32,000 bases of DNA from Okeania sp. (GCF_035285525.1 NZ_JAYKGW010000039.1:60001-92000); one strand, 5' to 3'; shown: positions 4,943-28,761, counted from the stretch's first letter. Program-made: numbers and translations. Notes: a model not told the origin generated them from the sequence alone.

Positions 4943-5560
4943 TTATTTTTTACTTCGATAACGACTCCCTGAACCAACAACTTTTGCAGAACTAGATTTA
5001 CGAGTGGACTTACGTCGTCGCTTTTGCAGCTTAATTTCAGGAAGTAAACCAGATAAACCCTTGGCTTTATAACGTTTGTAAGCAGAACTACTCCAGTCAC
5101 TCACAGAATGACTCATGGCCCCAACTTCAAGGCCAACTAATAAAGCAATTACTTCTGGATAATGTTGGGAAAGCGATCGCCACAAACCTACTACAAATTC
5201 TAAAGTCCTTCCTTCTAAACCCAATAACTGATCTATAATCAAACCCAATACTACTAAAACTGACAACCAAGTTAATAAATACAACAGCCGTAGTGCAGTA
5301 CCAATTATCGGTCCATGAGATAAAAAGGAACGATGGTGAAGACTTTTTTGGTAAGGTCGCCAAAGCCACTTCAACCAACCCCAACGTTGAAATTGACGGG
5401 AATAGATATCTAAGTCCGGCCCAAACATTAGGCCACTAAATAAAAAACCCCCAGATACAAATAGGGTCAAGTGGGTACTACGAAGCAACCCAAAACTTAA
5501 GCCTGTCACAATGGGCAAACTCCATAAGGTTATCCGATCATGGTTACTACCACTAGGCAT
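4943..5560 (-). CDS. DUF2227-like membrane 'metal-binding' protein (conserved hypothetical)
   Basis: 205-aa ORF. MPSGSNHDRITLW...GPDLDIYSRQFQRWGW...HHRSFLSHGPIIGT matches my memory of the DUF2227/COG2389 family. Basic C-terminal tail. Confidence 0.55.
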   Translation of the reverse strand: MPSGSNHDRITLWSLPIVTGLSFGLLRSTHLTLFVSGGFLFSGLMFGPDLDIYSRQFQRWGWLKWLWRPYQKSLHHRSFLSHGPIIGTALRLLYLLTWLSVLVVLGLIIDQLLGLEGRTLEFVVGLWRSLSQHYPEVIALLVGLEVGAMSHSVSDWSSSAYKRYKAKGLSGLLPEIKLQKRRRKSTRKSSSAKVVGSGSRYRSKK

Positions 5561-5673
5561 AGGAAATTCAATTTAGGCCAAACAATATATAAGTTATATT
5601 TATCATATATACTAGATTATACAATTTTTTTTAAGTTGCATTTTTAGTAATCTATGTTATATTAGTAAAAGTC

Positions 5674-5745
5674 GGGCGATTAGCTCAGTGGTAGAGCGCC
5701 TGCCTTACAAGCAGGATGCCACTGGTTCAAATCCAGTATCGCCCA
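5674..5745 (+). tRNA. tRNA-Val (anticodon UAC), no encoded CCA
   Basis: Acceptor stem gggcgat/atcgccc, D-arm agctcagtggtagagc, anticodon stem cctgc/gcagg with loop cuUACaa, T-arm ctggttcaaatccag, discriminator A. Confidence 0.9.
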
Positions 5746-6000
5746 TATTTTAAACTAAAGAAGTCTTTTTTTGAACTAACGGTATAGCATTCAGGCAAGG
5801 GATAGATATTTGCGGAAAAGGTAGCTCCGGTCTCTTATTTCCTGTTTCTCTAAAATAAAAATTTATCCCGCACTCTATCTCTATTCTATACAGTACAACA
5901 CTTTCCGTTGTTATGATTTAGATTCCATGGGGGCAAGATGCCAGAACTACAATGTTTTCACTATTTACCCTGTACATCATTTACCTGAAACCTGCTGTAA

Positions 6001-6040
6001 AATGATTTGTGAGAAAAAAACTGTAGGGGTTTGGTCTCCC
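6001..6040. mobile_element. Repeat family B copy (reverse orientation)
   Basis: aatgatttgtgagaaaaaaactgtaggggtttggtctcc is the reverse complement of the family B core. Confidence 0.6.
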
Positions 6041-6387
6041 AACCCTCTACCAACTAGAAATTTTCGCTCTTTTCTAATAGCATAAGGTTATTCTCCAAAG
6101 CACGCAGATTTGATATAATTCTTACTACTACCTCCTCTATAATTTCCATTCATCCTGACTCCTACCCCAACAAAAAGACTTTAGGGAATAGCAAAATATA
6201 GATTATTCCAATTTTCTATTCTATCGTTAACTGATTGCTGTATAATCCCCGTAGGGACCTTGCATAACAAAAATGCGTTTCATGTCGCGCAGCGATATGT
6301 CCGTACTACTCCCTATCTTCATAACTAACGGGATATTCTTTTACTTGGAATTCCCTTATTCAGCAAACTCTAATTATTAATTATTAA

Positions 6388-7953
6388 TTATTCTATCTCG
6401 TCTCCTGTCTTTTCTTGAACTCCCTGAATAATTCTGGACAGCTCACTTTTCTCATTTACTGTAATGCGAGTTGGAGAACCACTAATAATTCCTTCATAAC
6501 TACGGAAAGAGTCTTTAATATCTGGACCTTGGGCAGTAATTGTATATTCTCTAATACCTTTATCATGCCATGAACCACGCATTTTAAAGACATTAATTGC
6601 GCGAGACATTTCACCACGAATTTCTACATATTGCAGCATGAGAATTGTATCAGTAATTGTAGAAATATGGGAATCTGTAATAGAATTAGACCCCATAAAC
6701 TGATCGGTAGTATTAGTAAAAAATCCAGTTATTTCTTCTTGTTTGGCAAAACCAGTTACACCAATCACAAATTGTCTAAAAGCATTATTACTTACTCCCC
6801 TTGCTAAAGCAGATAAAGAATCAATAGCTATTCTCGATGGTTTAAAATCGGCAATTTCTGATTTAATAATTTGTAAGTGGTCTTCTAAACCGGCAGATTC
6901 TGGATAGCTACATAAAATTCTTAATAATCCTTTTTTTTCTAATTCTTCAAAATCTATACCCCAAGAAGAAGCATTACGGAATAATTGTGCCCTAGATTCT
7001 TCATAAGCAAAAAGCATCGCAGGTTCATTATTCATACAACCATTTTCGATAAATTTACTAACTAGCAAAGTTTTTCCTGTACCTGTAGCGCCAGTTGCTA
7101 ATATAATAGAATCTTTAAAGAAACCTCCTCCACACATTTGGTCAAGAATTTTATCCCCAGAAGAAACCCTAACATTAGAAGACCTTTGAGTTAAACGCAT
7201 CGCTCCCAGTGGGAATATATTTACACCATCATTAGTAATAGTAAATGGATATTCTCCTTTCATGTGAGTTGTCCCCCTCAGTTTCAGGATTTCCATTGTC
7301 CGACGTCTACGTTCACCTTCCAGAGCATTACGCACTATCACAACATTATCAGAGACAAATTCTTCTACTCCAAATCTGGCCACAGGGCCATATTCTTCTA
7401 CCCTTTCTGTAGTCATAATAGTTGTGGCCCCAACTTGTTTAAGTCGGGCAACTAAACGAAATATTTCTCTTCTGACTACCGAAGCAGCATCATATTGTTG
7501 AAATACAGCAGTTACAGAATCAATAGAAACTCTTCTAGCTTTATATTTACGAATAGCATATTGAATTCTTTCTATTAAAGCAGATAAGTCAAAATTGCCA
7601 ACTATGTCTTGTCCCTCTGGATCGGGAGAAGCATCTAAGATAAATAATTTGCCATCATCAACTAATTGCTGTAAGTTCCAACCAAAACTGTAGGCATTTT
7701 TAATAATATCCTGGGGAGACTCTTCAAAAGTGACAAATACTCCAGGTTCTTCAAAATAGGTAATCCCATTATAAAGAAACTGAATAGCAAACAATGTTTT
7801 ACCAGTTCCAGATGTACCGCTGACTAAGGTTGTTCTGCCAACTGGCATTCCTCCATGACTGATGTCGTCAAAACCCTCAATCATGGTCTTAATTTTTTCA
7901 ACTCCTACGGTTGCTATTCGATCTTTTCTAATAGACTCACTATTTTCATTCAT
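6388..7953 (-). CDS. kaiC: Circadian clock protein KaiC (double RecA-like ATPase/autokinase)
   Basis: 521 aa with two Walker A motifs (GTSGTGKT and GATGTGKT). The sequence is KaiC-like throughout (...KIKTMIEGFDDISHGGMPVGRTTLVSG...). The stop codon is embedded in a TAATTAT x3 array (6371-6391). Confidence 0.97.
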   Translation of the reverse strand: MNENSESIRKDRIATVGVEKIKTMIEGFDDISHGGMPVGRTTLVSGTSGTGKTLFAIQFLYNGITYFEEPGVFVTFEESPQDIIKNAYSFGWNLQQLVDDGKLFILDASPDPEGQDIVGNFDLSALIERIQYAIRKYKARRVSIDSVTAVFQQYDAASVVRREIFRLVARLKQVGATTIMTTERVEEYGPVARFGVEEFVSDNVVIVRNALEGERRRRTMEILKLRGTTHMKGEYPFTITNDGVNIFPLGAMRLTQRSSNVRVSSGDKILDQMCGGGFFKDSIILATGATGTGKTLLVSKFIENGCMNNEPAMLFAYEESRAQLFRNASSWGIDFEELEKKGLLRILCSYPESAGLEDHLQIIKSEIADFKPSRIAIDSLSALARGVSNNAFRQFVIGVTGFAKQEEITGFFTNTTDQFMGSNSITDSHISTITDTILMLQYVEIRGEMSRAINVFKMRGSWHDKGIREYTITAQGPDIKDSFRSYEGIISGSPTRITVNEKSELSRIIQGVQEKTGDEIE

Positions 7954-8162
7954 ACCTTTAATCTTCTTTTGGAAAAATTTAGCTATCCACGAATATGTTT
8001 ATTCCGGCCTTGTCGCCTCAAGATGTTATATGTCCTCAACATTTATATCACAAAATAGTTCATAAAAATATAGTTACAACATTAGACATCTCCTTGTAAG
8101 GATAGGCTTTAGAGGAGGATTAATTATTAATTATCAATTATCCATTATTAATTATCCATTAT

Positions 8163-8477
8163 TTAGAGATTATATTCATCTTCGCTAAGTTCTTCATAAA
8201 GCAAGTCTAATCCAATTAATACCTTTTCCCGGTCTGAAAGGTCGCCAATAATTTTTCTGACAGGTGGAGGTAATATTTTAGACAAAGTTGGCGTGGCCAA
8301 AATTTTATCTTCTTCTGCTAACTGAGGATTTTTTAATACGTCTATTACTTTTAAGGCATAAACTCCTTGAAATTCTTGTTCGAGAATGTCTTTGAGTGTT
8401 TTTAATGCTCGAACAGAATTAGGAGTATTTCCAGCAACGTATAATTTTAAAACATAGGTTTTTTTCAGAGGAGTCAT
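8163..8477 (-). CDS. kaiB: Circadian clock protein KaiB
   Basis: [33 protein letters not shown]...[33 protein letters not shown] is canonical KaiB. The ATG at 8477 is preferred over the track's TTG at 8489. Confidence 0.95.
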
Positions 8478-8779
8478 AGTTATTCTCAAGTAGTTTTTTC
8501 AGATTGTTTGAATAGTTTTTCTGGAATGAACAGCCGATTTAATAATACTTAAAACTCAATTAAAACCAATTTTTTGGGTGCATCTCAATTTTGGATAAAG
8601 CCAAAAAATTACCGCTTTTAGGGAACACTTAACTGGGAACAGGGAACAGATATGGAAGGAATGGGTATGGAGGAAAAAAGTATTTTGGTAAATTAAAGAT
8701 GAGATGTACCAATTTTTGTGTTTAGGAATTAATTGATTGGTTAAATATATTAACGTAATATTTCAGCTTGTCTTAGGGA

Positions 8780-9000
8780 ATGCTATGCAAACAGCTTCTG
8801 GAAAAAATCAAGCAATTACTAAAGTTTAGATGATGACTTTTTTCTGATTAACTTTTACAGCAGATTCCAAGTATATAAAGTACAAATATTAACGATGAAA
8901 TTTTTGTATAATAGGCATTCTTATGTTATATAAAATGCCTAAATCTTGATGAAATGCCCTGTAATTAATTATTTTTTTTGGAGAATAATTCCTTCTTCCC
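8780..9000. repeat. Module A of a diverged duplication inside the kaiA-kaiB spacer
   Basis: It shares ordered motifs with 9191-9370: atgct..gcaaacagct, aagcaatt, agtt(t)ag(a/c)tgatgac, tacagcagattcca, attattttt..ga..taattccttctt. Confidence 0.55.
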
Positions 9001-9190
9001 TAATAAAGTAATCCTAAATAAGCTGCAATATTTTATCCTAGTTTTTTCGCTCCGAATCAGATATTTGCTTCGATTTAGAAACCAAAATTCTACAATTTTT
9101 GACAAATCATTATTTAGGGTTATTATTATTAAATTTTAACTCGTGAATGATAGGTAGTAAGTAACAACTTTTGTAAGCATTTCCTGGGTC

Positions 9191-9370
9191 ATGCTGCGCA
9201 AACAGCTATTAGCATTTAGCATTTTTTGTGGAATGCACTTGCATTCAGATTTGGTAAATAATTAAGCAATTTAAAAGTTAGCTGATGACCAATTTCATGG
9301 ATAACTTTTAATTATTTTTAGAAGTTAATTCCTTCTTGAATTTTATAGTAAGTTAATACAGCAGATTCCA
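9191..9370. repeat. Module B of the diverged duplication inside the kaiA-kaiB spacer
   Basis: See module A. The order of two motifs differs, so the copies have been rearranged. Confidence 0.55.
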
Positions 9371-9802
9371 CAGCCATGAAGTAAATCCATCGCGGGCAAG
9401 AATCCCCCCTACTTGTGAACATTGAATTTTGAATATCTGTACTTCATGTACTTGGAATTTGTTGTAACTCAAATTTGATAGCTGAATTGCGCAGTTCCTC
9501 TGCAAGAGCCTAGCTGACGACTTTTTGCCGAGCATTAGGAAATACTTACCAGCTATTTGACTAGAGTTAAGCAGGAAATACCTAACATATATATTGCTCG
9601 AAAAAAGTATTAAACTTTATTATTAAGAATAAAATCATATTTGGAATGGATAGTAAATTTTAAGTTAAATAAAAATTATTTATCTATTTTTTTATGAGAT
9701 ACTTTAAAGTTATTAACCTAAATTATTCCTACATAAAAAATTACACTAACATTAACCTATCTGAATTTTTAGCCAGTTAATTTTTATTTAATAATTTATT
9801 TA

Positions 9803-10774
9803 TTAAGATTCTCTAGGAATAGAACGTCGATACATTTCACACAAATGTGCTATTGTATCTATCAGGGTTAATCGATAATCTAGCAACATTTCTTCACTAC
9901 GTCCTTCTAACTTTAGTTGTTTAGCAAATTCATCCATTAATTCCATGTGAATTTCGACAATTTGGGTTACAGGAATATCTGAGAAAAAACAGAGGTTAAC
10001 AAACTCGTCTATTTTATTGTTAATAGAATTATCTTGAGAAAAATATTTCAGAACAATATAACGGTATTCTAACTTAAGTTCATCTACAAACTTACGACGC
10101 TCCAGGGGAGCCATATTCCTAATAAAATTAGCGGGATTCCTTTTATAATACACACCTAGGTATCCTAATCTTTCCCTTAATTTTGCATATAATCTGTGTT
10201 GCTGTTGATGAAGTTTATTGTTAGCAAATTCATCATTAGGTTGATGAGATATTTGAGATTTATCTTTGGCATAACTAGCAGGAGAAAGGGTGAGAAATTT
10301 TTGAACTGCCTGCTCAATATAAAAATCTATTTGGCCTAGTTGATTAATTAATAATGGAAGTTCTGCTTGATGATAAATAAAATTTTCATAATTATTTTGT
10401 GTACTATATTGAGTTAAATCATTATCGACTAACTGCTGAGTTTCTAAAGAATTTTCAGATTTAGATTGTTTAATAATTACAGTAGGTAATAAAATAGATT
10501 TATTGTGTAATTGATTTATTAAAGAAGTTAATTCAGAATATTCTTGAAAGAGAAGACAATCTATGTTATTGTTCTCTTCAATAAGTTGGATAAATTCTCG
10601 TTCAGAGTTGGTTAATGCCACAAGGTAGCGATCCCTACTCAGTAGCTTAGTTACTGAAGTAGCAAATTTATCATCATGTAAATATATACAAATAAATAGT
10701 TGAGTAGACAAAATGTTAGGTACAGTAGCTAAATTTGGGTTGGGTGGAAAATCTGTAATCTGACAAATCTCCAT
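9803..10774 (-). CDS. kaiA: Circadian clock protein KaiA, full-length form (N-terminal pseudo-receiver plus C-terminal KaiC-binding domain)
   Basis: The C-terminus ...VEIHMELMDEFAKQLKLEGRSEEMLLDYRLTLIDTIAHLCEMYRRSIPRES is the KaiA signature. The N-terminal half (LFICIYLHDD...SRDRYLVALTNSEREFIQLIEENNNIDCLLF) aligns by eye to the Synechococcus elongatus KaiA pseudo-receiver. The exact start is uncertain, with an extension of about 20 aa over S. elongatus. Confidence 0.9.
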   Translation of the reverse strand: MEICQITDFPPNPNLATVPNILSTQLFICIYLHDDKFATSVTKLLSRDRYLVALTNSEREFIQLIEENNNIDCLLFQEYSELTSLINQLHNKSILLPTVIIKQSKSENSLETQQLVDNDLTQYSTQNNYENFIYHQAELPLLINQLGQIDFYIEQAVQKFLTLSPASYAKDKSQISHQPNDEFANNKLHQQQHRLYAKLRERLGYLGVYYKRNPANFIRNMAPLERRKFVDELKLEYRYIVLKYFSQDNSINNKIDEFVNLCFFSDIPVTQIVEIHMELMDEFAKQLKLEGRSEEMLLDYRLTLIDTIAHLCEMYRRSIPRES

Positions 10775-11125
10775 GACAAAATAATTTTATTATACTAAAT
10801 ATTTAAACATATACTGTAACAAATATTAACACGGAGCGGCTCTAGATTTTTTGAGTCCGCAAGATAGGATGAAGAGGTTCTATCAGTTATCAGTTAACAG
10901 TTATCAGTTATCAGTAGACAGCTCCGAAAATAAAAAAGATGAAGAGGTGTTGTTGAGATATAAATAATAGACATCTCCGGAAGAGAGGGAACAGGTATGG
11001 AGGGGGGTAAAAGTCAACCCCTAATGCGATCACAACGCAGAAACCCCAGAAACCGGGTTTCTCTGTTACGGGTTTCTCTGTTTCTGTTCCTACTCCCTAC
11101 TCCCCACTCCCTACTCCCTATTAAA

Positions 11126-14100
11126 ATGAATTATTTCAACTTAAATACCCGAACTGTTATGTTAATACCCTACACAACTCTAAAAAAATTTATATCTCCG
11201 ATACCAGTATGCTTAGAAACAGAAAATTTGCAAGTAGTCTGGTCAATTTTCTCTAGGGAAAAATGTAGTGAGTTAGTAGTAGTAAATGCTCGACAACAAC
11301 CATTAGGATTAATTTACTTACATAGTTTAATTCCTTATCTCATTTCTAACTCAGAAACCCAAAAACTTCCAACTAATCCTGCTATAAAAAATTGGCAACA
11401 ACCTCTACCTCCAATCAGTTCTTTGATATTAAATAGTTTGATGATCTTATCAGCAAATTTAACTGTTGATAAATTATGGTCATATCTCCAATCTCAATCT
11501 AAAAAGCAGCAAATTAATCAAGAATATTCTAGTTTACCTATCGCTCTTGTAGATAGAAAAGGTAAATTTTTAGGTTTATTAGATAGTTGGCAGTTATTAG
11601 AATTTATTTCTAAAACTGAAGACCAAAAGCCAAATAGCTCTAAACAAAAAAAATCCTCAGAAACGCAGCAAATAATTACAAAAGATTTTGTTAGTCTAGG
11701 AAAAGTAGAGACCTCTTCTTATCTTTCTTCATTAATAAAGCTTTTAGAAAAATTACCTTTACCTCTAATGTTGCAGAATAATGAAGGTAAAGTAATAAAT
11801 CAGAATTTAGCATGGCGTTCTGAGATAGAAAAAGAATCAGAATTAAGAGAAATTGTAGATACAGTTGTCAGTTTATCTACAAATAATATTAAACAACAGC
11901 CGAGCCAAGTAAAAATGCCAGACTCTCTAGCTATTTTTAGAGATGGCATAACATTTTCCTGTCCTACAACAACTGATTGGAAAATTTCCCCCACGACACT
12001 TTTAGAAGAAAGAGCCAAAATACCAAAACCAAATTCTAATTCTAGTTGGTGTTATTATACTCAACCAGATACTTATGTTTGTACTTGTCCTCAGCAAAAT
12101 GGTCCAGAACGAGTATGGCAATTTAGTAGTCAAGAATTGTTTGACCTAACATTAGTATTAGCTCAGGATGTTACAGAACAACATTTAGTGGCAAAAGAAT
12201 TACAAGCTAAAAATGCTGACTTAATTCAGCTTAACCGACTTAAAGATGAATTTTTGGCTTGTATTAGTCATGAACTAAAAACACCTTTAACTGCTGTACT
12301 GGGTTTATCTAGTTTATTGAAAGAAAAGACTTTGGGAAGTCTGAATGAACGTCAAAGTCGTTATGCTCAACTGATTCATCAAAGTGGCCGTCATTTGATG
12401 GCGGTTGTGAATGATATTCTAGATTTGACTCGGATGGAAACTGGACAAATGGAGTTGAACCCAGGAAAAGTTGACATTCGGAGAGTTTGTGACTTTGCTT
12501 TTCAGGAAGCTTTACAACTTCAATATAAGCATCCTGAAAGTAAATCTTCTGCTATCTTTCCTGATTCTCTACGAGCCAAATATACTTTGGAGATAGAGAC
12601 TGATCTTAATATTATAGTCGCAGATGAGTTACGTTTGCGCCAGATGTTAGTAAATTTATTATCTAATGCTTTGAAGTTTACTCCCGCAGATGGCAAGATG
12701 GGGTTAAAAGTAGCTAGATGGGAAAAGTGGATAACTTTTACTGTTTGGGATTTGGGGATTGGTATTCCACCTGATAAACAACATTTGATTTTTCAGAAGT
12801 TTCAACAATTAGAAAATCCTCTAAGTCGTGAGTTTGAAGGAACTGGTTTGGGTTTAGTATTGACTCAACGTTTAGCTCGTTTACATGGTGGGGATATTAC
12901 TTTTATTTCTCAGGAAAATAAGGGGAGTGAGTTTACTTTAATTTTACCACCAAGTCCTCCTCCAAAAGATTTAGAAATTGCAGGATGGGAAACGAATGAT
13001 TATTTGAAAAAACAAGGATTAATTCCTAGTAAACCCAGTGAAGTAGCAAGTAAGAAAGAGAGGAAGTTATCGGTTAATAATTGTCAATTACCTTTAGTTA
13101 ATTATTCATCTCGTTTAGTTTTAATTGTGGAGGCAGTTCCGCGATTTATTGAAGATTTGACAAATAAATTAACAGGTTTAGGTTATCGAGTAGTTATTGC
13201 TCGTTCTGGTACGGAAGCGGTGGAAAAGGCAAGAAAGTTACAACCAAAGTTAATATTTCTGAATCCATTTTTGCCTCTTTTATCTGGTTGGGATGTTTTA
13301 ACTTTATTAAAAACTGATAATGATACTTGTCAGATTCCTGTAGTGATAACTTCTACTATTGGAGAGAAAGAAAGAGGGATAATTTATGGAGCAAATAAGT
13401 TTTTAAGTTTACCTGTAGAACAGTTAGCATTAGAAAAAATATTAACAGAATTTACTAATGCTCCATCACAAAAAGAGAGCTATCAAAAATTAATAATTCT
13501 TCGTTTAATTCCTGGTAAATACAAGTTTGATAATCCCACTACAGAAGAATCTATTTATGAGAATAAATTTCTTTCTCTTCCAGTTGAATATAGAATTATA
13601 GAAGCAGATGATTTAGGTCAAGCTAATTTACTTGCTAAAATTTGGCATCCTCATGTAATTTTGATAGAAAGAATTTCTAATTCTATTACTCCTGTTAAAT
13701 TTATTCAAAGTTTAAGTCAATATTCTACTTTAGCTGCTATTCCTTTAGTAACTCTTGATTCGGAAACTACTCAAGCAGCTAATCAAATTAAACAATTATC
13801 TGTATTTCCTTGTTTAGCTTTTGAAAAAAATGATAATAATTTAACCGAAACCAAAGTTGATGATGAATCTTTAACATCTGCATTGTCGCAAGTAATTTCT
13901 ATTGCTGCGGGTGTGAGTTGGGTGCCAACTATATTAGTTATGGATGTGGCGAATATTAAAGATTTTACAGTACCTTTAACAGATATTTTGTCTAAGGAAA
14001 CTGTGGCTAATTTTTCAGATTTTGCATCAGAAAAAAAGGGGAAAGAGTTAGGAAATAATACTTTTAATTTTTCAACTTTTCCGGCTTTTATTTCTGATTT

Positions 14101-14503
14101 AGAAGCAACCGAGAAAAATTCGCAAAATTGTGAATCCACAAAATTACCAATTGATAGTACACAAGTTTTAGTTCAGTATATTCAAACTTCTGGATTTAAA
14201 GGTTTAATTGCTAAATCTTGGGTAGAGGTTTTATCACAATTGCAAAATCATAGTGTAGATTTATTATTAATTTGTTTAAGGGGAAATTTACCTCTTGGTT
14301 TCGATAAAAGATTATCTGATTTAGAGAAAATTTTAACAAAACCTCCTATATTAGTTTGGGAACATTCTGATTATCAATTACCAAGAAATCTTACACGAAA
14401 AAATCTAAATTTAGTTTTGAATAAGATTGCGACAAAAATTTTGCCTTCTGATTTATCAATAGTAGATTTATTGACAGAAATTAAGAGTCATTTGATATTT
14501 TAG
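11126..14503 (+). CDS. Sensor histidine kinase: CBS pair, PAS-like region, HisKA, HATPase_c and three degenerate receiver-like modules
   Basis: H-box FLACISHELKTPLTAV (His codon 12269-12271), N/G boxes LVNLLSNALKFT, WDLGIGIP, EGTGLGLVL. A receiver-like fold follows with Asn (13262-13264) in place of the phospho-acceptor Asp. The start is moved to the ATG at 11126 because the first 43 codons of the track ORF are read through a GGGAGTA STRR array. Confidence 0.85.
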   Translation: MNYFNLNTRTVMLIPYTTLKKFISPIPVCLETENLQVVWSIFSREKCSELVVVNARQQPLGLIYLHSLIPYLISNSETQKLPTNPAIKNWQQPLPPISSLILNSLMILSANLTVDKLWSYLQSQSKKQQINQEYSSLPIALVDRKGKFLGLLDSWQLLEFISKTEDQKPNSSKQKKSSETQQIITKDFVSLGKVETSSYLSSLIKLLEKLPLPLMLQNNEGKVINQNLAWRSEIEKESELREIVDTVVSLSTNNIKQQPSQVKMPDSLAIFRDGITFSCPTTTDWKISPTTLLEERAKIPKPNSNSSWCYYTQPDTYVCTCPQQNGPERVWQFSSQELFDLTLVLAQDVTEQHLVAKELQAKNADLIQLNRLKDEFLACISHELKTPLTAVLGLSSLLKEKTLGSLNERQSRYAQLIHQSGRHLMAVVNDILDLTRMETGQMELNPGKVDIRRVCDFAFQEALQLQYKHPESKSSAIFPDSLRAKYTLEIETDLNIIVADELRLRQMLVNLLSNALKFTPADGKMGLKVARWEKWITFTVWDLGIGIPPDKQHLIFQKFQQLENPLSREFEGTGLGLVLTQRLARLHGGDITFISQENKGSEFTLILPPSPPPKDLEIAGWETNDYLKKQGLIPSKPSEVASKKERKLSVNNCQLPLVNYSSRLVLIVEAVPRFIEDLTNKLTGLGYRVVIARSGTEAVEKARKLQPKLIFLNPFLPLLSGWDVLTLLKTDNDTCQIPVVITSTIGEKERGIIYGANKFLSLPVEQLALEKILTEFTNAPSQKESYQKLIILRLIPGKYKFDNPTTEESIYENKFLSLPVEYRIIEADDLGQANLLAKIWHPHVILIERISNSITPVKFIQSLSQYSTLAAIPLVTLDSETTQAANQIKQLSVFPCLAFEKNDNNLTETKVDDESLTSALSQVISIAAGVSWVPTILVMDVANIKDFTVPLTDILSKETVANFSDFASEKKGKELGNNTFNFSTFPAFISDLEATEKNSQNCESTKLPIDSTQVLVQYIQTSGFKGLIAKSWVEVLSQLQNHSVDLLLICLRGNLPLGFDKRLSDLEKILTKPPILVWEHSDYQLPRNLTRKNLNLVLNKIATKILPSDLSIVDLLTEIKSHLIF

Positions 14504-14509
14504 AAATTA

Positions 14510-14545
14510 GGGAGTAGGGAGTAGGGAGTAGGGAGTAGGGAGTAG
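14510..14545. repeat. STRR-type heptamer array (GGGAGTA) x5, starting 7 nt after the kinase stop codon
   Basis: gggagtagggagtagggagtagggagtagggagtag. Confidence 0.9.
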
Positions 14546-14561
14546 TTTTTTAATTTTTAAT

Positions 14562-14587
14562 GCAGTGGAAAAACCACTGCTTTTTTT
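14562..14587 (+). terminator. Rho-independent terminator of the kinase gene
   Basis: Stem gcagtgg / ccactgc, loop aaaaa, followed by T7 (14581-14587). Confidence 0.8.
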
Positions 14588-14613
14588 ATATCAGCTACAT
14601 AGAAAATAATCAC

Positions 14614-14672
14614 CCAACAAAAATTGCTTTTTTTGGGCAACATTTATTGGGTTTTATGACAATATTTGTTGG
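14614..14672. promoter_or_regulatory. Inverted pair CCAACAAAAATTG (14614-14626) / CAATATTTGTTGG (14660-14672); candidate operator upstream of the first island ORF
   Basis: The two arms match at 12 of 13 positions when one is reverse-complemented. The half-site CCAACAA recurs in the perfect palindrome at 15060-15071. Confidence 0.3.
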
Positions 14673-14746
14673 TTTTATTTTAAATAAATAGGCTATATAT
14701 TAGTTAAATAATCCACAGACTAAATTCTAATTTGGAGACTAATATA

Positions 14747-14947
14747 ATGTCTAAAAAAACTAAAAAATCTAAAATTATTAAGTATTTGTATATCAACTGC
14801 GCTGAAAGAATTGCTATTTTAAAATTGAATTTATGGGGCAGTGTCTTGAGTGTGTCGTTGAAGCAGGAAAAGAATATCTATTTAAAGTATTTAAAACCCA
14901 TAAAGATGCTGATATGGAGACTTATAATTCTGAAATATCTACAATAA
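14747..14947 (+). CDS. Hypothetical small basic protein (66 aa from the ATG at 14747); coding status uncertain
   Basis: GGAG lies 9 nt upstream of the ATG at 14747 (tttGGAGactaatataATG). The sequence is very AT-rich. An overlapping alternative frame (14833-15003, MGQCLECVVEAGKEYLFKVFKTHKDAD...) ends just before the 15014 hairpin and cannot be excluded. Confidence 0.3.
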   Translation: MSKKTKKSKIIKYLYINCAERIAILKLNLWGSVLSVSLKQEKNIYLKYLKPIKMLIWRLIILKYLQ

Positions 14948-15013
14948 TTTTGTTCGTTAGGGTGCCTTGTCGTCGGTTTATTTTATCAAAATTTACTCCG
15001 TAAATAAGACGAT

Positions 15014-15056
15014 TTCCAATTAGATATACATAATAAATTTATCTAATTGGAATTTT
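15014..15056 (+). terminator. Hairpin with T-tract (13-bp perfect stem ttccaattagata / tatctaattggaa, 13-nt loop, then TTTT)
   Basis: Read directly: arms at 15014-15026 and 15040-15052, followed by ttttg. Confidence 0.6.
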
Positions 15057-15059
15057 GTA

Positions 15060-15071
15060 CAACAATTGTTG
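15060..15071. promoter_or_regulatory. Perfect 12-bp palindrome CAACAATTGTTG; candidate operator
   Basis: Read directly. It lies about 170 bp upstream of the 15242 ORF and is related to the 14614/14660 half-sites. Confidence 0.3.
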
Positions 15072-15241
15072 GTTGTCTTTTGGGAAGATACTGTTATGAT
15101 GTTTATTACATAATTAGCTGATGCTGTAAACTTGCTGTTTAAAATGGGAGGAAATTCTTAAATTGAGAAAATAATCTGCTAAATCAAAATATGTTTTTTT
15201 CAACGTTACCCTACCTAAATTATGATGCAAAGTGAGGTTAT

Positions 15242-15517
15242 ATGCACCGAAAAGATTTTAATACCCCCTCTTATATTGATGAAGTGAAAAAACTAGCAAG
15301 CGATCGCAATATCAATGTTCTAGAAGTTGATAATTTATTAGATGCAATAGAGAAAATTTTCAAAGTTTCTATTTCTGAAAAGTATAAAATGATGATTTAC
15401 TTAGCAATAAGAAGTTTCTTTAAGATAGAAGATATGGGTGAAATAACTGAAAACAATATATGTTATTTTCAATGTTATGCTACTAAATTATGGAGCAAAG
15501 TGAGGTTATATGCCTAG
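15242..15517 (+). CDS. Hypothetical small protein (91 aa), copy 1 of a tandem duplication
   Basis: A GAGG Shine-Dalgarno sits 4 nt upstream of the ATG (aaagtGAGGttatATG). The frame is intact and contains a HIP1 site (15300-15307). I recognise no family. Confidence 0.5.
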   Translation: MHRKDFNTPSYIDEVKKLASDRNINVLEVDNLLDAIEKIFKVSISEKYKMMIYLAIRSFFKIEDMGEITENNICYFQCYATKLWSKVRLYA

Positions 15518-15710
15518 GAAAGACTTTAATTCTAACTCTTCTATTGATGAAGTCAAAAAAGAAGCGAATTATTACAAGATCAATGTTTGATAAGTTGATA
15601 ATTTATTAAACGAAATAGAGGAAAATTTCAAAATTTCTATTTCTGAAAAGTATAGAATTATGCTCTACTTAGGGATGGCTGGTTTGTATACAAAGAAAGA
15701 GCTAAAGTAA
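15510..15710 (+). pseudogene. Copy 2 of the small ORF, interrupted by two adjacent in-frame stops (TGA TAA at 15588-15593)
   Basis: The same SD-plus-ATG context (aaagtGAGGttatATG). MPRKDFNSNSSIDEVKKEANYYKINV**VDNLLNEIEENFKISISEKYRIM... aligns with copy 1, MHRKDFNTPSYIDEVKKLASDRNINVLEVDNLLDAIEKIFKVSISEKYKMM... Confidence 0.6.
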
Positions 15711-15799
15711 CTGGACACACTTACAGAAATATACATTCTGATTTCAACAAAAATCTAGGTTGGTATCTGAAAGAATATTTTTATCCTTAATCACAAGAT

Positions 15800-15982
15800 A
15801 TGCGTTTTGGTATCACTTCTTTAAGAAGAACTATTTATTCTTTATATCTAAAATGTTTTGATCAATATAATGATGATAATTTAACTAACATTTTACCTAG
15901 CCGTGTGCAAGAAAATTTAGAAGTTAAAGAAGATTCAAAAGTTGATGAAAATATTGACGATAATCGCCTAATTACTGACTAA
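15800..15982 (+). CDS. Hypothetical 60-aa acidic ORF; weak support
   Basis: The only support is an open frame. There is no Shine-Dalgarno and no recognisable motif. Confidence 0.2.
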   Translation: MRFGITSLRRTIYSLYLKCFDQYNDDNLTNILPSRVQENLEVKEDSKVDENIDDNRLITD

Positions 15983-16038
15983 TCAATTTTTTCCATTTTC
16001 CAAGACCAAACACTATAATATAAGAAACGAATCAATTT

Positions 16039-17040
16039 ATGAAAAGAGAATCATCTAATCAAATATTATCCAAATATAGTTTAATTGAGACTTCTAAATT
16101 AACCGCATTACTACAACAAAAATGCGATGAAGACGAACGTGCTAATTGGATTAGAGAATTAGGTGAACTTATTGAACCAGAAGTAATTAAATTTTTGTGG
16201 AATTTAAGAAATAATATGGAAAATGAAGACCCTTTTGTTCAATATGAAATAAAGCTTAGTCTTCACAAAATTACAAGTCATCCTCATGTTGATATTGATA
16301 TATTTCTTGAAAATTTATCAGTATTCCAAACCCAAGAAAAAAATTCCCAAGCTCCTAAAATTCTAATTGACTCTAACATACTTGAAGAATTTTTATTAAG
16401 AAATAAAACTACTACTAGCCAAGATGTTACTAGAGTAGTTGAATGGGTTTTATCTGAAAAGATTAATCCCTATCTTGGTAAAAAGGGATTAGAAAATCTT
16501 TGGTCAAGGGCTGAAAATTTGAGAGGAAAAGAATATGCTAACCGTCTTATTATAGAAATTATAAGTCAATTTAATATTTGTGAAATTGACTTGAAAGAAA
16601 TCGATCTGGAAAAATATCCCACTGTCAATATACCAACTATTATTCAACTTGAATGTGCTAAGAAATATGATTTGAATGCCATCATTACTTTAAGGGATAG
16701 GGATTTTATAGGTAGTGATTGGCCTTATATTTATTCACCAGCATTATTCTTAGATTATGTAGAGTCTCAAAAGTTTGATTTATCTCCTGAATCTTTCAGA
16801 GAAAAAGAAGCTCAAAAATATATTGAGAAAACGAGAGAAAAACTATCCAAGATTTGGAATCAAGAACTGAAAAAAAATACTCATTTTGAGGACAGATTAC
16901 TCCTTTTTCAAGGTTGGAGTATTCAAAAGTTTGAGCTTCTTTGTACCAAAGGAGACCTAACTTCTGCTACTTTTATTTTACAAGATAAGTCTGGAAAAGA
17001 ACATTCTCAAAAGTCTGGTTTCAAAAGAGGTTCAATATAA
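16039..17040 (+). CDS. HEAT-like repeat plus PIN-domain protein; probably the 5' part of a longer frameshift-split gene
   Basis: aa 30-80, DERANWIRELGELIEPEVIKFLWNLRNNMENEDPFVQYEIKLSLHKI, is HEAT-like. aa about 106-242 has a PIN-like layout: KILIDSNIL (Asp111), VVEWVLSEK (Glu), NAIITLRDRDF...IYSPALFL (Asp220/222, the T-x-D-x-D-F / P-x-x-F-L ending common in VapC-type PINs). The C-terminal 40 aa begin a LeuA-dimer-like domain that continues in the next frame. Confidence 0.6.
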   Translation: MKRESSNQILSKYSLIETSKLTALLQQKCDEDERANWIRELGELIEPEVIKFLWNLRNNMENEDPFVQYEIKLSLHKITSHPHVDIDIFLENLSVFQTQEKNSQAPKILIDSNILEEFLLRNKTTTSQDVTRVVEWVLSEKINPYLGKKGLENLWSRAENLRGKEYANRLIIEIISQFNICEIDLKEIDLEKYPTVNIPTIIQLECAKKYDLNAIITLRDRDFIGSDWPYIYSPALFLDYVESQKFDLSPESFREKEAQKYIEKTREKLSKIWNQELKKNTHFEDRLLLFQGWSIQKFELLCTKGDLTSATFILQDKSGKEHSQKSGFKRGSI

Positions 17041-17155
17041 TGCACTTTTTACCGCTTTTGATAAGGCTTTATCTCATATAGTTGAGATTAAACATGAACT
17101 AAAATTTATCTACATAGCTAATTTAAAGCCAGGTAAAGAAGGTTATGTAACTGTT

Positions 17156-18124
17156 ATGGCTTCTGTAAAATATGGCGAGGAAGAAGTCATTAAAATTTAT
17201 AGCCATGAAAGTATAATTAAAGCGTATCTATTTGCTTATGTTAAAGCAATTATTGCCATTTATGCTCCTCACGAATGTTCTCAAGATACTTATAAAGAAA
17301 ACGAATTAATGAGTCTATATAAAATAGGAGTTAGAGACTTTTATAAGTTAAATTTCAGCAAGGTAGATTTAAGTGACAATGAAGCTAATCTCTCAGAATC
17401 TACTTTGATAGAGTGTGATTTTAGTAATGCTAATCTTTCAGGCGCGAATCTCACAAAAGCTGATTTAACTAGAGCAAATTTAACTAATGCAAATTTAACT
17501 AATGCAAATTTGACTGAAGTTAAGTTAGACAAAAATAATCAAACTCTCTTTGAGGATACAATTTTGACTAATACTATTATGCCGGAAATAAAAATTTCCG
17601 TTAGTAGACGGTCACGAATAAATATAATAGTTAGATTATTAGAACAAATTGATTTTCAAGAAAGTAAATGTCAGTTATTAATAGTTCATAGAATGACTAC
17701 TCCTATATGGTGGTCTAGCGATTTGGGTATGTATTTTTGGGAAATAAATAAAAAAATACTTCAAAAAGGTATTCTGATAAAAAGAGTTTTTATACTTCCT
17801 GAATCTCCCACACCAGAGCATCTACAAATACTTCGAGAACAAGCAGAATTTGGTATAGAGATAAGATATATTTGCTATACTAAAGCAGAAAATGTTGATA
17901 ACTATGATTTGCATAATACTAACTTAATGGTTTCCGAAAATTTGTCCGTCGAAAGAAACTCTTTTACAAGTAGAATATTAATCAATAAAGAGGAGGAAAA
18001 AGGTTATATCTCTTATCAAGAAATAGATTTGAAAACTGATAAAGAACTTTTCTATTCCATTTGGAAAGAGGCAGAAACTTACAGTTGTTCTGTATCAATC
18101 CCGAATGAATCTTTGAAAAAATAA
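17156..18124 (+). CDS. Pentapeptide-repeat protein with an unassigned 170-aa C-terminal module; the frame is open from 16961 with no start codon before 17156
   Basis: A(D/N)LXX pentapeptide repeats: ANLSESTLIECDFSNANLSGANLTKADLTRANLTNANLTNANLTEVKL (about 17348-17576). The first ATG lies in the middle of a predicted domain (…GYVTVMASVKYGEEE…). Confidence 0.6.
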   Translation: MASVKYGEEEVIKIYSHESIIKAYLFAYVKAIIAIYAPHECSQDTYKENELMSLYKIGVRDFYKLNFSKVDLSDNEANLSESTLIECDFSNANLSGANLTKADLTRANLTNANLTNANLTEVKLDKNNQTLFEDTILTNTIMPEIKISVSRRSRINIIVRLLEQIDFQESKCQLLIVHRMTTPIWWSSDLGMYFWEINKKILQKGILIKRVFILPESPTPEHLQILREQAEFGIEIRYICYTKAENVDNYDLHNTNLMVSENLSVERNSFTSRILINKEEEKGYISYQEIDLKTDKELFYSIWKEAETYSCSVSIPNESLKK

Positions 18125-18184
18125 CGTAAGCATTTAGCAGTTAGTAATAGTTGCTCACTCTGTCCGCTCAAAAATGATCATGCT

Positions 18185-18212
18185 GTAGGGACGTTGCATC
18201 CAACGTCCCTAC
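18185..18212. terminator. Palindromic hairpin GTAGGGACGTT-gcatcc-AACGTCCCTAC between convergent genes (bidirectional terminator and/or repeat element)
   Basis: 11-bp perfect stem. A degenerate relative lies at about 581-605, downstream of rlmN. Confidence 0.65.
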
Positions 18213-18215
18213 TTT

Positions 18216-19064
18216 CTACTTCCTACCCTCTACGGAATCAATTAATTTGTCTAATTCTTGCTGCATTTCCGTGAGAACTCTTTGATAGCAAGCATCAACA
18301 TAACTGCGATCGCTAGCTGCTTTCCGTCCATAACGTTCAAAAACAATGGGAGGACAAACCCGAGTATGAATCTGTACTGGGAAAGGGAAATTAGGCAAAG
18401 GTCCGATAGCTAGTCCCCAAGGCAAACCTATATAAATAGGAAACACTTCCGGGTCAGCATCAAATAACCACGGCATTCCCCACTGATGGAGTTGCTTTAT
18501 TTGTTCATAAAAATCAGCCAATATAATTAGAGTATCATGGGCGCCATGAGAAATCATCGGTACAATCGGAACTTCTTCCCGCAAAGCCAACTTGATAAAA
18601 CCTTTACGTCCGGCAAAATAGATTTTATTTCGCATAGAATAGGGGCGAAAAACATCAAGACCTCCACCAGGATAAACAGCTACAGAAGCATTTCTAGCAA
18701 AAGCAGCGATCGCCATTCTTGGGTGCGCTCTAACTGCTCCACATTGTACTGGGGTAGATGAAGTTGGGAAAACTGACCACGCATTCTGGTGCATTAGTCC
18801 ATAAGCTAAACGTTCTGTACCAAATCTCTTAAACCAGTCATACATACACATGTGCATATCTGGAGCAGCTAAACCACCATTATGAGAACCAACTATGAGA
18901 ACTTTCTCATCAGGAATATGATGCCAACCATCAGTTTGAACGCGGAAGTAATAGCGATAAAACCATTCCCATAGTGGCATCATTGATTTAATTACTTCTG
19001 GATCGCGGTCATCTAATGACCAACCGTCAAAAGGTTTACGGATATTTTGTTGATTAGCAGTCAT
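18216..19064 (-). CDS. Glycerolipid acyltransferase (PlsC/LPLAT-superfamily-like)
   Basis: 282 aa. ...VLIVGSHNGGLAAPD..., FAGRKGFIKLALREEVPIVPMISHGAHDT resemble acyltransferase blocks. Higher GC than the adjacent island. The exact subfamily was not determined. Confidence 0.6.
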   Translation of the reverse strand: MTANQQNIRKPFDGWSLDDRDPEVIKSMMPLWEWFYRYYFRVQTDGWHHIPDEKVLIVGSHNGGLAAPDMHMCMYDWFKRFGTERLAYGLMHQNAWSVFPTSSTPVQCGAVRAHPRMAIAAFARNASVAVYPGGGLDVFRPYSMRNKIYFAGRKGFIKLALREEVPIVPMISHGAHDTLIILADFYEQIKQLHQWGMPWLFDADPEVFPIYIGLPWGLAIGPLPNFPFPVQIHTRVCPPIVFERYGRKAASDRSYVDACYQRVLTEMQQELDKLIDSVEGRK

Positions 19065-19090
19065 TTCAGTTATCAGTTATCAGTTATCAG
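19065..19090. repeat. Heptamer array (CAGTTAT) x3.5 beginning at position -1 of the acyltransferase start codon
   Basis: The coding strand reads ctgataactgataactgataactgaaATGac, the same ...ataactgaaATGac context as at rlmN. Confidence 0.9.
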
Positions 19091-27306: not shown

Positions 27307-28761
27307 CTATGGCACTATATCGTCCCATCCCCACCAAGGACTCACTTCCAACACACCTGTGGGACTTAAAATGACCCTAAATAATCCCAGTTGCTTTTGT
27401 TTTTCAGAAACAGATTTATTTTTAGTAAAATTAACTAGCCTGGGTAGGGGAGTTTCCAATACATAATTTTGAGCAGATTGATTCATCGGTTCATAACTAG
27501 CGATCGCTCCATCACCATCTACTTTGACCAGATATTCCAAATCTTCATACCAAATAGGCGTTGTTTGCCAGCTCTGATTGATTTGGTCATACAACTTTTG
27601 ATTCAACTCTTCTAGCTTCCCTGCTTCATAAATTTCTGGAAAAATCATTTTAGGTTTGGCCTGACACTCATTACTGTCGCATTCATCATTGGTCACATTT
27701 AACTGGGGAGATGATTTCCTGGCCGAGACAGACCATAGCTTAATAGTTTCATCTGCACTACCGCTAGCCAAAGTCTCCCCATCCGGACTAAAACCAACAG
27801 ACCAAACTGGTTTAGTATGACTTTGATATGTTTCGATTAATTTCTGATTTTCCACTTGCCACAGATAGATTTTTTTGTCGTAACTACCACTAGCTAAAGT
27901 CTCCCCATCCGGACTAAAGGCAACAGACAAAACTGCTTTTGAATGCCCATCAAAAGTTCCAATTTCCTGACCAGTATCTGTTTTCCATAACTTGATAGTT
28001 CCATCCTGACTGCCACTAGCCAAAGTTTTGGCCTTGGGGTTGTATGCGATCGCCCAAATAGGACGAGAATGAGCTTTTAAAATATATTGTTCTGTTCCAG
28101 TTTTCACATCCCAGATTTTAAGTTTGCCATTTTTGCCACCACTAGCTAAAGTTTTCCCATCCGGGCTAAAAGCTAAAGAAATTACAGGACTAGAATGGTG
28201 CAAACGCAAGATTTCGGTTCCAGTTTTTAGACTCAGTAACTTAATAATACCGCTGTAACTACCAATACCGATAGTTTCTCCATCGGGAGAGATAGTAACT
28301 GCTTTAATATCATCAGCATTAACATTGATAGTGCTAACCAGGTTTCCGTTACTAAAATTCCATAATTTTACGCAATCATCCCAACCACCAGTAACCATAA
28401 TTTTTCCATCAGGAGTTATTGCCATAGACTGAACTGCATCAGCATGAGCTGCAATAGTATGGGTTAATTTCCCGCTAGGTAAATCCCAAATTTTTACTGT
28501 GCCGTCATAACTGCTACTAGCTAGGGTTTTTCCATCTGAACTCATTGCAACTGCATAAACCCAAGTTGAATGACCAGACAAAGTTTTTAGAGGCTGTTTT
28601 TTTTCTGTTAATTTATGGTTTGTTTCTGGGATTTTTGTTGATAGTAACTGCTGCCAATTTATTCGTTCTGTACTTTTAATTACAACGGTTGTTGTGAAGG
28701 CTGTAATTAATGCTGTCATGGCTATTGTGGTGGATGTCTGAGTAATTTGTTTGGATTGCAT
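27307..28761 (-). CDS. WD40-repeat protein with an N-terminal membrane anchor and an unassigned about 130-aa C-terminal domain
   Basis: Seven repeats of the type GH...V.SVAFSPDGKTLASGS.D.TIKLW. TM segment TSTTIAMTALITAFTTTVVI. Confidence 0.85.
   Translation of the reverse strand: MQSKQITQTSTTIAMTALITAFTTTVVIKSTERINWQQLLSTKIPETNHKLTEKKQPLKTLSGHSTWVYAVAMSSDGKTLASSSYDGTVKIWDLPSGKLTHTIAAHADAVQSMAITPDGKIMVTGGWDDCVKLWNFSNGNLVSTINVNADDIKAVTISPDGETIGIGSYSGIIKLLSLKTGTEILRLHHSSPVISLAFSPDGKTLASGGKNGKLKIWDVKTGTEQYILKAHSRPIWAIAYNPKAKTLASGSQDGTIKLWKTDTGQEIGTFDGHSKAVLSVAFSPDGETLASGSYDKKIYLWQVENQKLIETYQSHTKPVWSVGFSPDGETLASGSADETIKLWSVSARKSSPQLNVTNDECDSNECQAKPKMIFPEIYEAGKLEELNQKLYDQINQSWQTTPIWYEDLEYLVKVDGDGAIASYEPMNQSAQNYVLETPLPRLVNFTKNKSVSEKQKQLGLFRVILSPTGVLEVSPWWGWDDIVP

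Follow-up and report, generated by a model that had tools for sequence, protein, structure and literature searches.

Between the genes for a histidine kinase and an acyltransferase in a 32,000-nt stretch of DNA from Okeania sp. (GCF_035285525.1, NZ_JAYKGW010000039.1:60001-92000; the whole stretch is called the window below), there is an AT-rich block that had been taken, in an earlier reading of the sequence (the original prediction), as a group of orphan genes forming a candidate undescribed PIN-based system. The source had been thought to be a member of Nostocales, but it is a metagenome-assembled genome (MAG) of Okeania sp., which belongs to Oscillatoriales. The block contains three co-oriented genes, here called A, B and C. 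All three carry disabling lesions: A and C are frameshifted, and B is partly duplicated, has three stops in frame and lacks 4 nt. Almost certainly, the locus is a decayed copy of a conserved cassette. The features of the block are as follows (positions in the window).

14548-18124, plus strand: whole cassette block, over which the DNA is homologous to the A-B-C cassettes of other Okeania
14562-14587, plus strand: terminator-like hairpin (14562-14580) with a T-run, after the histidine kinase gene (terminator scan)
14747-15003, plus strand: gene A, a pseudogene of the DUF1830 family, ~85 aa (DNA alignment; Pfam match of the orthologue)
15016-15050, plus strand: AT-rich inverted repeat (ccaattagata...tatctaattgg) between genes A and B (read from the sequence and the DNA alignment)
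15242-15517, plus strand: '91-aa ORF', an extra 5' copy of gene B from a 268-nt tandem duplication (repeat scan, tblastn)
15510-15982, plus strand: ancestral copy of gene B, a pseudogene, ~150 aa, all-helical, weakly like a helix-turn-helix (HTH) protein (alignment to gene B of locus L004; tblastn)
16039-18124, plus strand: gene C, a pseudogene, 694 aa once repaired (translation; alignment to intact 700-aa homologues)
16087-16326, plus strand: HEAT-like helical repeats of C, aa 17-96 (Pfam HEAT_2 E=8e-4, below gathering; stacked helices in the AlphaFold2 model)
16351-16773, plus strand: PIN_3-type domain of C, aa 105-245 (Pfam, profile search, Foldseek, motif alignments), with D111 at 16369-16371, T200 (in place of the canonical Asp) at 16636-16638 and D222 at 16702-16704
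16894-17254, plus strand: LeuA-type allosteric (LeuA_dimer) domain of C, aa ~286-405 (Pfam, Foldseek)
17366-17540, plus strand: pentapeptide repeats of C (PF00805, 81.8 bits, E=2e-23 in the second open reading frame of the window's C)
17573-18094, plus strand: C-terminal domain of C with the PLD fold and no HKD motif, ~170 aa (Foldseek)
18185-18212, no strand: palindromic G+C-rich hairpin with a 12-bp stem, between the convergent gene C and acyltransferase gene (terminator scan)

The layout of open reading frames (ORFs) was as first described. Gene C is split by a 1-nt insertion within 'atataa'. Its annotated halves are the ORFs 16039-17040 and 17156-18124, with frame +1 open from 16961, and PGAP lists them as separate proteins of the Okeania sp. 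MAG, on a contig of 112 kb. Intact homologues read ...SGFKRGSINALFTAFDKAL... where the window reads ggt tca ata TAA tgc; the single extra base was therefore placed at 17037/17038, inside the interval (17023-17040) suggested for a frameshift in the original prediction. The conceptual fusion of the two halves matched intact proteins of ~700 aa from Okeania and Microcystis end to end (E=0), in agreement with the proposal that the large composite gene is one frameshifted reading frame. The fused protein was 84%, 80% and 77% identical to metagenomic proteins, 74-76% to proteins of Okeania and a related MAG, 56% to that of Crocosphaera chwakensis and ~53% to hundreds of Microcystis proteins. In the isolate Okeania sp. 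KiyG1 (L005/L017), C is independently frameshifted near the 3' end (11727-11776) into pieces of 609 and 125 aa, annotated as 592 and 66 aa, which suggests recurrent loss of the cassette in Okeania. A programmed frameshift in C was ruled out: relatives are unshifted at the site of the window's insertion, and KiyG1 is broken at a different site.

The region 14747-15003 had been described as one or two tiny ORFs. There is indeed coding sequence, which belongs to a single frameshifted DUF1830 gene; in relatives, the counterpart of this region is one gene of 79-87 aa. The frame is lost through a 1-nt deletion in the A-run at 14821-14824 (A5 to A4); a 9-nt duplication at 14879-14896 leaves it unchanged. 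Restoring one A gave a clean 85-aa ORF resembling the Okeania protein. Against DUF1830 (PF08865, gathering score 25), the orthologues of Okeania (L002) and Microcystis scored 65.2 bits (E=5e-18) and 60.9 bits, respectively, and the frameshifted fragment of the window 18.5 bits. Gene A is missing from many Microcystis loci and is inverted in one.

The 91-aa and 60-aa ORFs had been listed separately, but they are pieces of one ancestral gene of ~150 aa. In relatives, gene B is a single ORF of 143-159 aa that spans both pieces. A tandem duplication with a period of 268 nt (15215-15404 versus 15483-15672, 82% identity) produced the 91-aa ORF, which consists of ~72 intact N-terminal codons plus a tail derived from the duplication junction and is 55-60% identical to the N-terminus of Okeania B by tblastn. 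The ancestral copy downstream is interrupted in frame by TGA TAA (15588-15593) and TAA (15788-15790) and has lost 4 nt near 15692, and the 60-aa ORF (15800-15982) is its 3' third, with the conserved RFGITSLRR motif. With a 147-aa Microcystis protein as the query, tblastn matched 15531-15704 and 15677-15961 in different frames. The order of events was duplication of the 5' part followed by gain of stops and a deletion in the downstream ancestral copy, and the description of a tandemly duplicated 91-aa ORF with an inactivated second copy was confirmed. In Okeania sp. SIO1I7 (L001), B and a 5' fragment of C are tandemly duplicated (9368-10748) upstream of an intact C; this spot was duplicated there independently of the event in the window.

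Gene B is found only in taxa carrying C, and in all Okeania and Microcystis loci it lies 40-100 nt upstream of C in the same orientation. In the metagenomic protein P0010 (814 aa), residues 17-124 are B-like and run on into C in one continuous frame (hhalign probability 98%, E=9e-14). P0019 has a shorter B-like N-terminal extension. B probably is a dedicated partner of C. It had no match in Pfam, NCBIfam or PADLOC. The AlphaFold2 model of B showed seven helices and was confident, with a predicted local distance difference test score (pLDDT) of ~95 over aa 10-120. Weak Sigma70_r4_2 matches were obtained for 9 of 50 B members, and the clade relative P0423 fuses PIN_3 to Sigma70_r4. Judged from these sequence matches, B possibly is a sigma-70-region-4-like HTH protein, and it possibly binds DNA.

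The A-B-C cassette is intact in other Okeania, Microcystis, Woronichinia and Crocosphaera. When the small ORFs of the window were compared with related loci by tblastn, the order A, B, C recurred in 15 genome loci, with B-C as the invariant core. The ORFs are therefore no orphans, since other genera have counterparts of all of them directly upstream of the large gene. Okeania DNA homology ends at 18124, the stop codon of gene C; by blastn to L005 and L003, the ranges 14548-15457 and 15451-18124 were covered at 76-82% identity and the flanks were unmatched. Five other Okeania genomes share one locus, in the order TetR, HAD hydrolase, a 362-aa gene on the opposite strand, A, B, C and M3 peptidase; none of these flanking genes is present in the window. 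In Dapis and Okeania SIO3I5, the DprA side of the acyltransferase orthologue is retained but RlmN follows downstream, and the junction in the window therefore is a synteny break. A comparison of the kinase-acyltransferase junction among relatives had been proposed; intact long genes were found elsewhere, but an empty or equivalent junction, or a clean insertion site, was not found in Dapis and Okeania SIO3I5. In Microcystis the cassette occupies a fixed locus, NadD - (RES/Xre toxin-antitoxin pair) - (A) - B - C - (Uma2) - TrkA, and the arrangement in Woronichinia is similar. Toxin-antitoxin genes (RES/Xre, YoeB, Uma2) adjoin the cassette in both genera. Beside the cassette of Microcystis and Woronichinia (L016 5335-6365, L018 6241-7253 and other Microcystis loci), a RES-toxin gene and a ~146-aa gene lie divergently; in some strains the RES gene is shortened or lost.

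To compare rates of evolution, we used the ratio of nonsynonymous to synonymous substitution (dN/dS). In Microcystis, at a dS of ~0.09-0.1, dN/dS was 0.37 for C, ~0.4 or higher for B, 0.20 for the Xre-like gene, 0.10 for NadD and 0.03 for TrkA, and one B allele of Microcystis was only 37% identical. The claim of small, fast-evolving genes tightly linked upstream of the large gene was borne out. In Okeania, dN/dS of C was 0.29-0.34 between the window and others and 0.28-0.41 among intact copies, at a dS of ~0.4 between the window's C and other Okeania copies. Because the value for the window was no higher than those of intact copies, any inactivation of C is recent. Per-domain values of C were similar, with no domain under distinct selection. 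The GC content of gene C was 4-8 points under that of its flanks in every host.

The structure of C was modelled with AlphaFold2 on the intact homologue P0001 (84% identical), and the model was compared with PDB by Foldseek. Its mean pLDDT was 69.5; the HEAT-like, PIN-like and C-terminal parts reached 70-94, with ~90 in the HEAT-like part and 70-90 in the PLD-fold region. Pfam, AlphaFold2 and Foldseek agreed on the domain order that had been read by eye, namely HEAT-like, PIN-like, LeuA-dimer-like, pentapeptide repeats and a C-terminal module. Against PIN_3 (PF13470, gathering score 27 bits), the first ORF of the window's C scored 19.3 bits (E=0.002, sub-threshold); PIN_3 was the top weak Pfam match in 12 of 13 diverse members, also sub-threshold (best E 6e-5, profile positions 1-111 of 115). 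Clade relatives P0380, P0392, P0409, P0374 and P0367 were above the threshold (39.7, 37.0, 34.9, 30.1 and 29.9 bits, respectively). Employing a profile of the N-terminal 412 residues, we retrieved from 1.8 billion representatives dozens of stand-alone proteins of ~140 aa (E 1e-8 to 1e-4); all five that were sampled were PIN_3 proteins (E 1e-12 to 1e-25). By Foldseek, the PIN region matched VapC structures (5ecw, TM-score 0.70; 6ifc, 0.68; 5x3t, 0.61; probability 1.0 each). A profile of the PIN region gave no PIN match among PDB sequences, the relationship being not visible at that level. Based on the matches to stand-alone PIN_3 proteins and, for the homologue, to VapC, the PIN fold that had been proposed is genuine.

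Stand-alone PIN_3 proteins show the motifs 'lDtN..lD', 'DFEDAvQ...A' and 'TRn.kDF'. The C family retains D111, E117 (replacing D), Q203, A207, T217, D/E222 and F223, and thus two of the four canonical PIN acids (D111 and D/E222). In the original prediction the active site had been drawn with E135/E140 as well; D111 and D222 do lie at canonical positions, but E135/E140 are unconserved and the acid of 'DFED' is replaced by T200, so that the acids are placed as in a PIN active site only by half. S, T or N is found at that Asp position in the whole PIN_3-LeuA_dimer clade. As a speculation from sequence conservation, the family-invariant E165, N168, R169, E173 and E205 might form an alternative site.

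For LeuA_dimer (PF08502, gathering score 24.9 bits), P0079 of Microcystis and P0015 scored 36.3 bits (E=6e-9) and 31.1 bits, P0001 was just under the threshold (22.5 bits, E=1e-4), and clade relatives scored up to 80 bits. The region matched the regulatory domains of LeuA and LiCMS by Foldseek (TM-score 0.59-0.63), and it is this domain that is cut by the frameshift in the window. The pentapeptide region matched Np275/276, All3740 and related proteins among PDB sequences, and Foldseek also matched it to pentapeptide-repeat proteins. The C-terminal region matched Nuc (1byr, TM-score 0.67), the C-terminal domain of TrmBL2 (probability 1.0), PLD3 and BfiI. At the position of HxK(x)4D(x)6GSxN, the family shows [HD]-N-T-N-L-M-V-x-E-N-x-x-V-x-R-N-S-F-T, in which the His is unconserved and the Lys is missing; as modelled, the domain resembles the non-catalytic TrmB-type version of the fold. 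With only two of the four PIN acids and no HKD motif, C is uncertain as a catalyst, and its domains may act as binding or sensor modules.

By its domain content, C is a member of an undescribed PIN_3-LeuA_dimer clade. About 60 clusters (at 50% identity) share the PIN_3 plus LeuA_dimer core, to which pentapeptide repeats and the PLD-like domain may or may not be added, and members are found in Nostoc, Crocosphaera and the Geminocystis plasmid pGM3709_01 (L025). Members without the PLD-like domain are followed by homologous genes of 710-732 aa (L022 5991-8123 and L025 8972-11170, both after PIN_3-LeuA_dimer-pentapeptide genes; 29% identity, E=1e-70) with caspase-like His/Cys motifs (GGHS / NSC) and a weak CHAT match. 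IlvD adjoins the Nostoc relative. Divergently upstream of the cassette in Okeania and of the Nostoc clade member, there is a gene for a protein of 362-394 aa with three His-box motifs and no Pfam match (L003 2744-3829; L004 6871-7956; L005/L017 7699-8784; L024 3882-5066; remnants at L018 5927-6214), which we read as desaturase-like from its motifs. The Okeania protein is 48% identical to the product of the gene upstream of the Nostoc clade member, and remnants are found beside the Woronichinia cassette; the gene is absent from the window. The DUF6014 gene of Geminocystis was considered as a counterpart of the 362-aa gene and was rejected on comparison. At L022 2702-3835, the distant member P0392 has upstream of it a 35-aa ORF and a pair of small paralogues, of 144 and 201 aa, that share 55% identity; the upstream small ORFs of L022 and L024 were rejected as B homologues, there being no detectable relation.

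No named system matched the cassette: PADLOC gave no hit, there is no family-specific NCBIfam model for its proteins, and literature searches for the architecture found no relevant paper. Scanned against NCBIfam and PHROGs, intact A, B and C showed nothing beyond the pentapeptide and LeuA pieces. The closest known systems share only parts with it. Like VapBC pairs with PIN_3 toxins, it has a small gene directly upstream of, and co-oriented with, the gene for a PIN_3 protein; the PIN region of C is homologous to the stand-alone ~140-aa proteins (E ~1e-8), superposes on VapC and still has D111 as the first Asp, together with the Q/A helix and 'T..D/E-F' motifs. Unlike these toxins, C is a 700-aa protein of five modules that has neither the 'DFED' acidic motif nor a conserved second acid, and B shows no clear resemblance to a known antitoxin fold. 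The LeuA-type domain is above the Pfam gathering score in relatives and has the fold of the regulatory domains of Mycobacterium tuberculosis LeuA (2-isopropylmalate synthase) and Leptospira citramalate synthase, but C is without the catalytic TIM-barrel of these enzymes and has the domain fused to PIN_3. As in Np275/276, HetL and Qnr/MfpA, the repeats would form a right-handed quadrilateral beta-helix; in C there are only ~15-18 of them, within a multi-domain protein, and gyrase mimicry is unsupported. The C-terminal 170 aa have the fold of Nuc, BfiI, PLD3 and the TrmBL2 C-domain; unlike PLD nucleases, the C family is without HxK(x)4D and is closer to the TrmB type. The cyanobacterial multi-domain conflict systems of Kaur et al. 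(2020; PMC7159879) resemble the clade in being fast-evolving and in adding variable parts to a core (here a constant PIN_3-LeuA_dimer core with pentapeptide, PLD-like, CHAT-like and HEAT additions) and differ from it in their NTPase (STAND, MoxR, vWA), which the cassette lacks; a term search of that paper did not find the PIN_3-LeuA_dimer architecture.

On balance, we consider it probable that the locus is a pseudogenised copy of an uncharacterised cyanobacterial cassette whose intact version may serve as a ligand-sensing accessory module for stress or conflict. Intact C would be a ligand-sensing protein with the LeuA-type domain as the sensor; its PIN_3 module would bind or cut RNA; B would control or partner C as a regulator or antitoxin-like protein; and A would be an optional modulator. 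The cassette would be an accessory stress or conflict module, not a housekeeping one. A conflict or stress role is plausible in view of the rate of evolution, the GC offset, the patchy cyanobacterial distribution, the repeated loss, the adjoining toxin-antitoxin genes and the variable modules on a constant core. A conflict or toxin-antitoxin-like role is put forward tentatively, at somewhat less than an even chance, and toxin-antitoxin or anti-phage function is inferred from the layout and evolutionary rate.

Several observations weigh against the stress or conflict module. In alignments to stand-alone PIN_3 proteins, N-I-P-T (Okeania) or N-L-K-T (Microcystis) stands in place of 'DFED', with the invariant T200 at the Asp position, and no conserved second acid was found in the PIN region; the HxK motif of the PLD-fold domain was absent in 16 of 16 aligned relatives. 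Foldseek of the B model gave no significant neighbour (best E ~1, to HTH modules of sigma region 4, AraC and MarR). Within genera, the cassette stays at one fixed chromosomal locus without its own integrase or transposase; a scan of viral contigs showed no relatives of the cassette; and PADLOC-DB v2.0 contained no family matching intact A, B and C of Okeania and Microcystis at E<=1. The LeuA-type domain points to metabolism, as do the studied DUF1830 proteins, PirC/CfrA (Sll0944) and PirN of Synechocystis, which are regulators of carbon/nitrogen metabolism (PMC13205821, PMC6603209). Finally, the single-nucleotide indels in A and C rest on a MAG assembly whose consensus is not read-confirmed. 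Much of this would fit a metabolic or regulatory module, in which C is a non-catalytic scaffold sensing an amino or keto acid, with the degenerate PIN and PLD folds as binding modules and with a DUF1830 regulator and a His-box membrane enzyme as associates, and which the lineage of the window has lost. Motif degeneracy in both nuclease-like folds, the LeuA-type domain, the fixed position, IlvD beside the Nostoc relative, the divergent His-box gene (Okeania and the Nostoc relative, with remnants in Woronichinia) and the bona fide DUF1830 domain of gene A all argue for it. However, gene A is like PirC/CfrA and PirN by Pfam domain and unlike them in being only loosely tied to B-C (it is missing from many Microcystis loci), and binding of PII, PGAM or PsbO has been seen experimentally for the Synechocystis proteins alone (PMC13205821, PMC6603209). 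Also at odds with a metabolic module are dN/dS values 4-12 times those of flanking housekeeping genes, the patchy distribution with disruption in two Okeania genomes, the GC content under that of the flanks in every host, and the pairing of clade members with CHAT-like genes, one of them on a plasmid. We regard it as rather unlikely, though a serious competitor to the stress or conflict module.

The state of the locus in this genome is clearer. Since all three genes are disrupted, no system can be active here, and the locus is non-functional; the earlier suspicion that the large gene may be inactivated proved right, and extends to A and B. An active, undescribed toxin-antitoxin or abortive-infection system with a PIN nuclease could appeal to the PIN fold with small genes upstream, to the lack of a matching named system and to the dN/dS of the window's C, which is not above that of relatives, so that any inactivation is recent. 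It is contradicted already by the stops and deletion in B besides its duplication, then by the frameshifts in A and C and by the PIN catalytic tetrad being incomplete family-wide, and is very improbable indeed. That the frameshifts in A and C are errors of assembly or consensus, both genes being intact in the organism, would agree with the MAG origin of the sequence, with the single lesion per gene whose one-base repair gives a clean ORF, with the homopolymer at the lesion of A and with the unrelaxed dN/dS of C. Yet the insertion in C is not in a homopolymer ('atataa'), gene B, its neighbour in the cassette, carries four or more independent lesions that no consensus error can explain, and C is also broken in an independent isolate, KiyG1; such errors are quite improbable as the explanation. 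An unlikely origin of the block is recent acquisition as a foreign island between the kinase and acyltransferase genes. Its position among the lowest-GC spans of the window, the exact stop of homology at its borders, the different locus of the cassette in five other Okeania genomes and RlmN downstream of the acyltransferase orthologues in Dapis and SIO3I5 are what would be expected of an island. Conversely, the block has no integrase, transposase or flanking direct repeat; the cassette is low in GC against each of its hosts, so that this composition belongs to the genes and does not betray a recent arrival; the kinase gene is just as AT-rich in its 3' part; a lineage-specific HIP1 site arose inside the block; a dS of ~0.4 to Okeania copies fits vertical divergence with rearrangement; and no 'empty' kinase-acyltransferase junction was found in relatives (Dapis and Okeania SIO3I5). 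Taken together, the parts of the original prediction fared differently: an unnamed multi-gene unit with a PIN_3 fold does exist, but it is not an orphan, it is dead in this genome and its active site is incomplete.

The borders and composition of the block were as follows. The proposal of a discrete block with a terminator on the left and a palindromic hairpin on the right held, since both were found by the terminator scan and homology stops at the borders; the left hairpin (14562-14587) falls within the region homologous to relatives. The block has a GC content of 28.5%, compared to 34.3% in the window, 32.4% in the kinase gene and 41.9% in the acyltransferase gene. It is AT-richer than the window as a whole and, as stated earlier, than the acyltransferase gene, but not than the 3' part of the kinase gene, and equally low 3.6-kb spans start at ~12900. 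The inverted repeat between A and B (15016-15050) is partly conserved in relatives; being poor in G-C pairs, it went unreported in the terminator scan. The hairpin at 18185-18212 is present in a single copy in the window, with further copies in other Okeania loci (L004 6807-6837 and L002 6208-6246), and looks like a shared, dispersed bidirectional terminator or a repetitive extragenic palindrome-like repeat. The copy in L004 sits just past the 3' end of the 362-aa His-box gene. An Rfam scan of the block gave only a chance snoRNA match below threshold.

As had been noted, one HIP1 site lies inside the small ORF (15300-15307), in the 5' extra copy of gene B; it is one of 15 in the window. No HIP1 site (GCGATCGC) occurs over ~10 kb (5181-15299), including the whole kinase gene, compared to a window mean of one per 2.1 kb. 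Intergenic tandem heptamers, (AGGGAGT)n, of the short tandemly repeated repetitive type are found at 14510-14545, 10881-10915, 19064-19090 and ~605-676, and the same arrays are present in Microcystis loci. A coding region with WD40-type repeats (27660-28610) resembles repeat genes in L001 and L005 and is unrelated to the cassette.

For this genome itself, the window copy is a relic of little interest, although it is a concrete case of step-wise decay (duplication, stops, frameshifts) in a gene-poor genome of the Okeania/Trichodesmium type. It points to a conserved, apparently unstudied cyanobacterial clade that joins a PIN_3 fold to an allosteric domain of the leucine pathway. One branch of this clade, carried by many genomes of bloom-forming Microcystis, comes with a dedicated partner gene that evolves fast. 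In its most extended form, which we consider improbable as a whole, the PIN_3-LeuA_dimer proteins would be an unrecognised cyanobacterial class of ligand-gated conflict or stress proteins: the metabolite-sensing LeuA domain would control a remodelled PIN domain; output or recognition would fall to exchangeable parts recruited by the core, be it a PLD fold without HKD, pentapeptide repeats or a CHAT protease encoded downstream; HTH-like B, as a dedicated partner, would restrain the protein in the branch of Okeania and Microcystis; and the DUF1830 protein, of the PirC/PirN kind, would modulate it and in this way tie it to carbon/nitrogen status. If the LeuA-type domain does gate an RNA-directed activity, this would be a new coupling of metabolite levels to the fate of RNA or to decisions on suicide or defence, and the intact alleles of Microcystis and Okeania make the idea directly testable.

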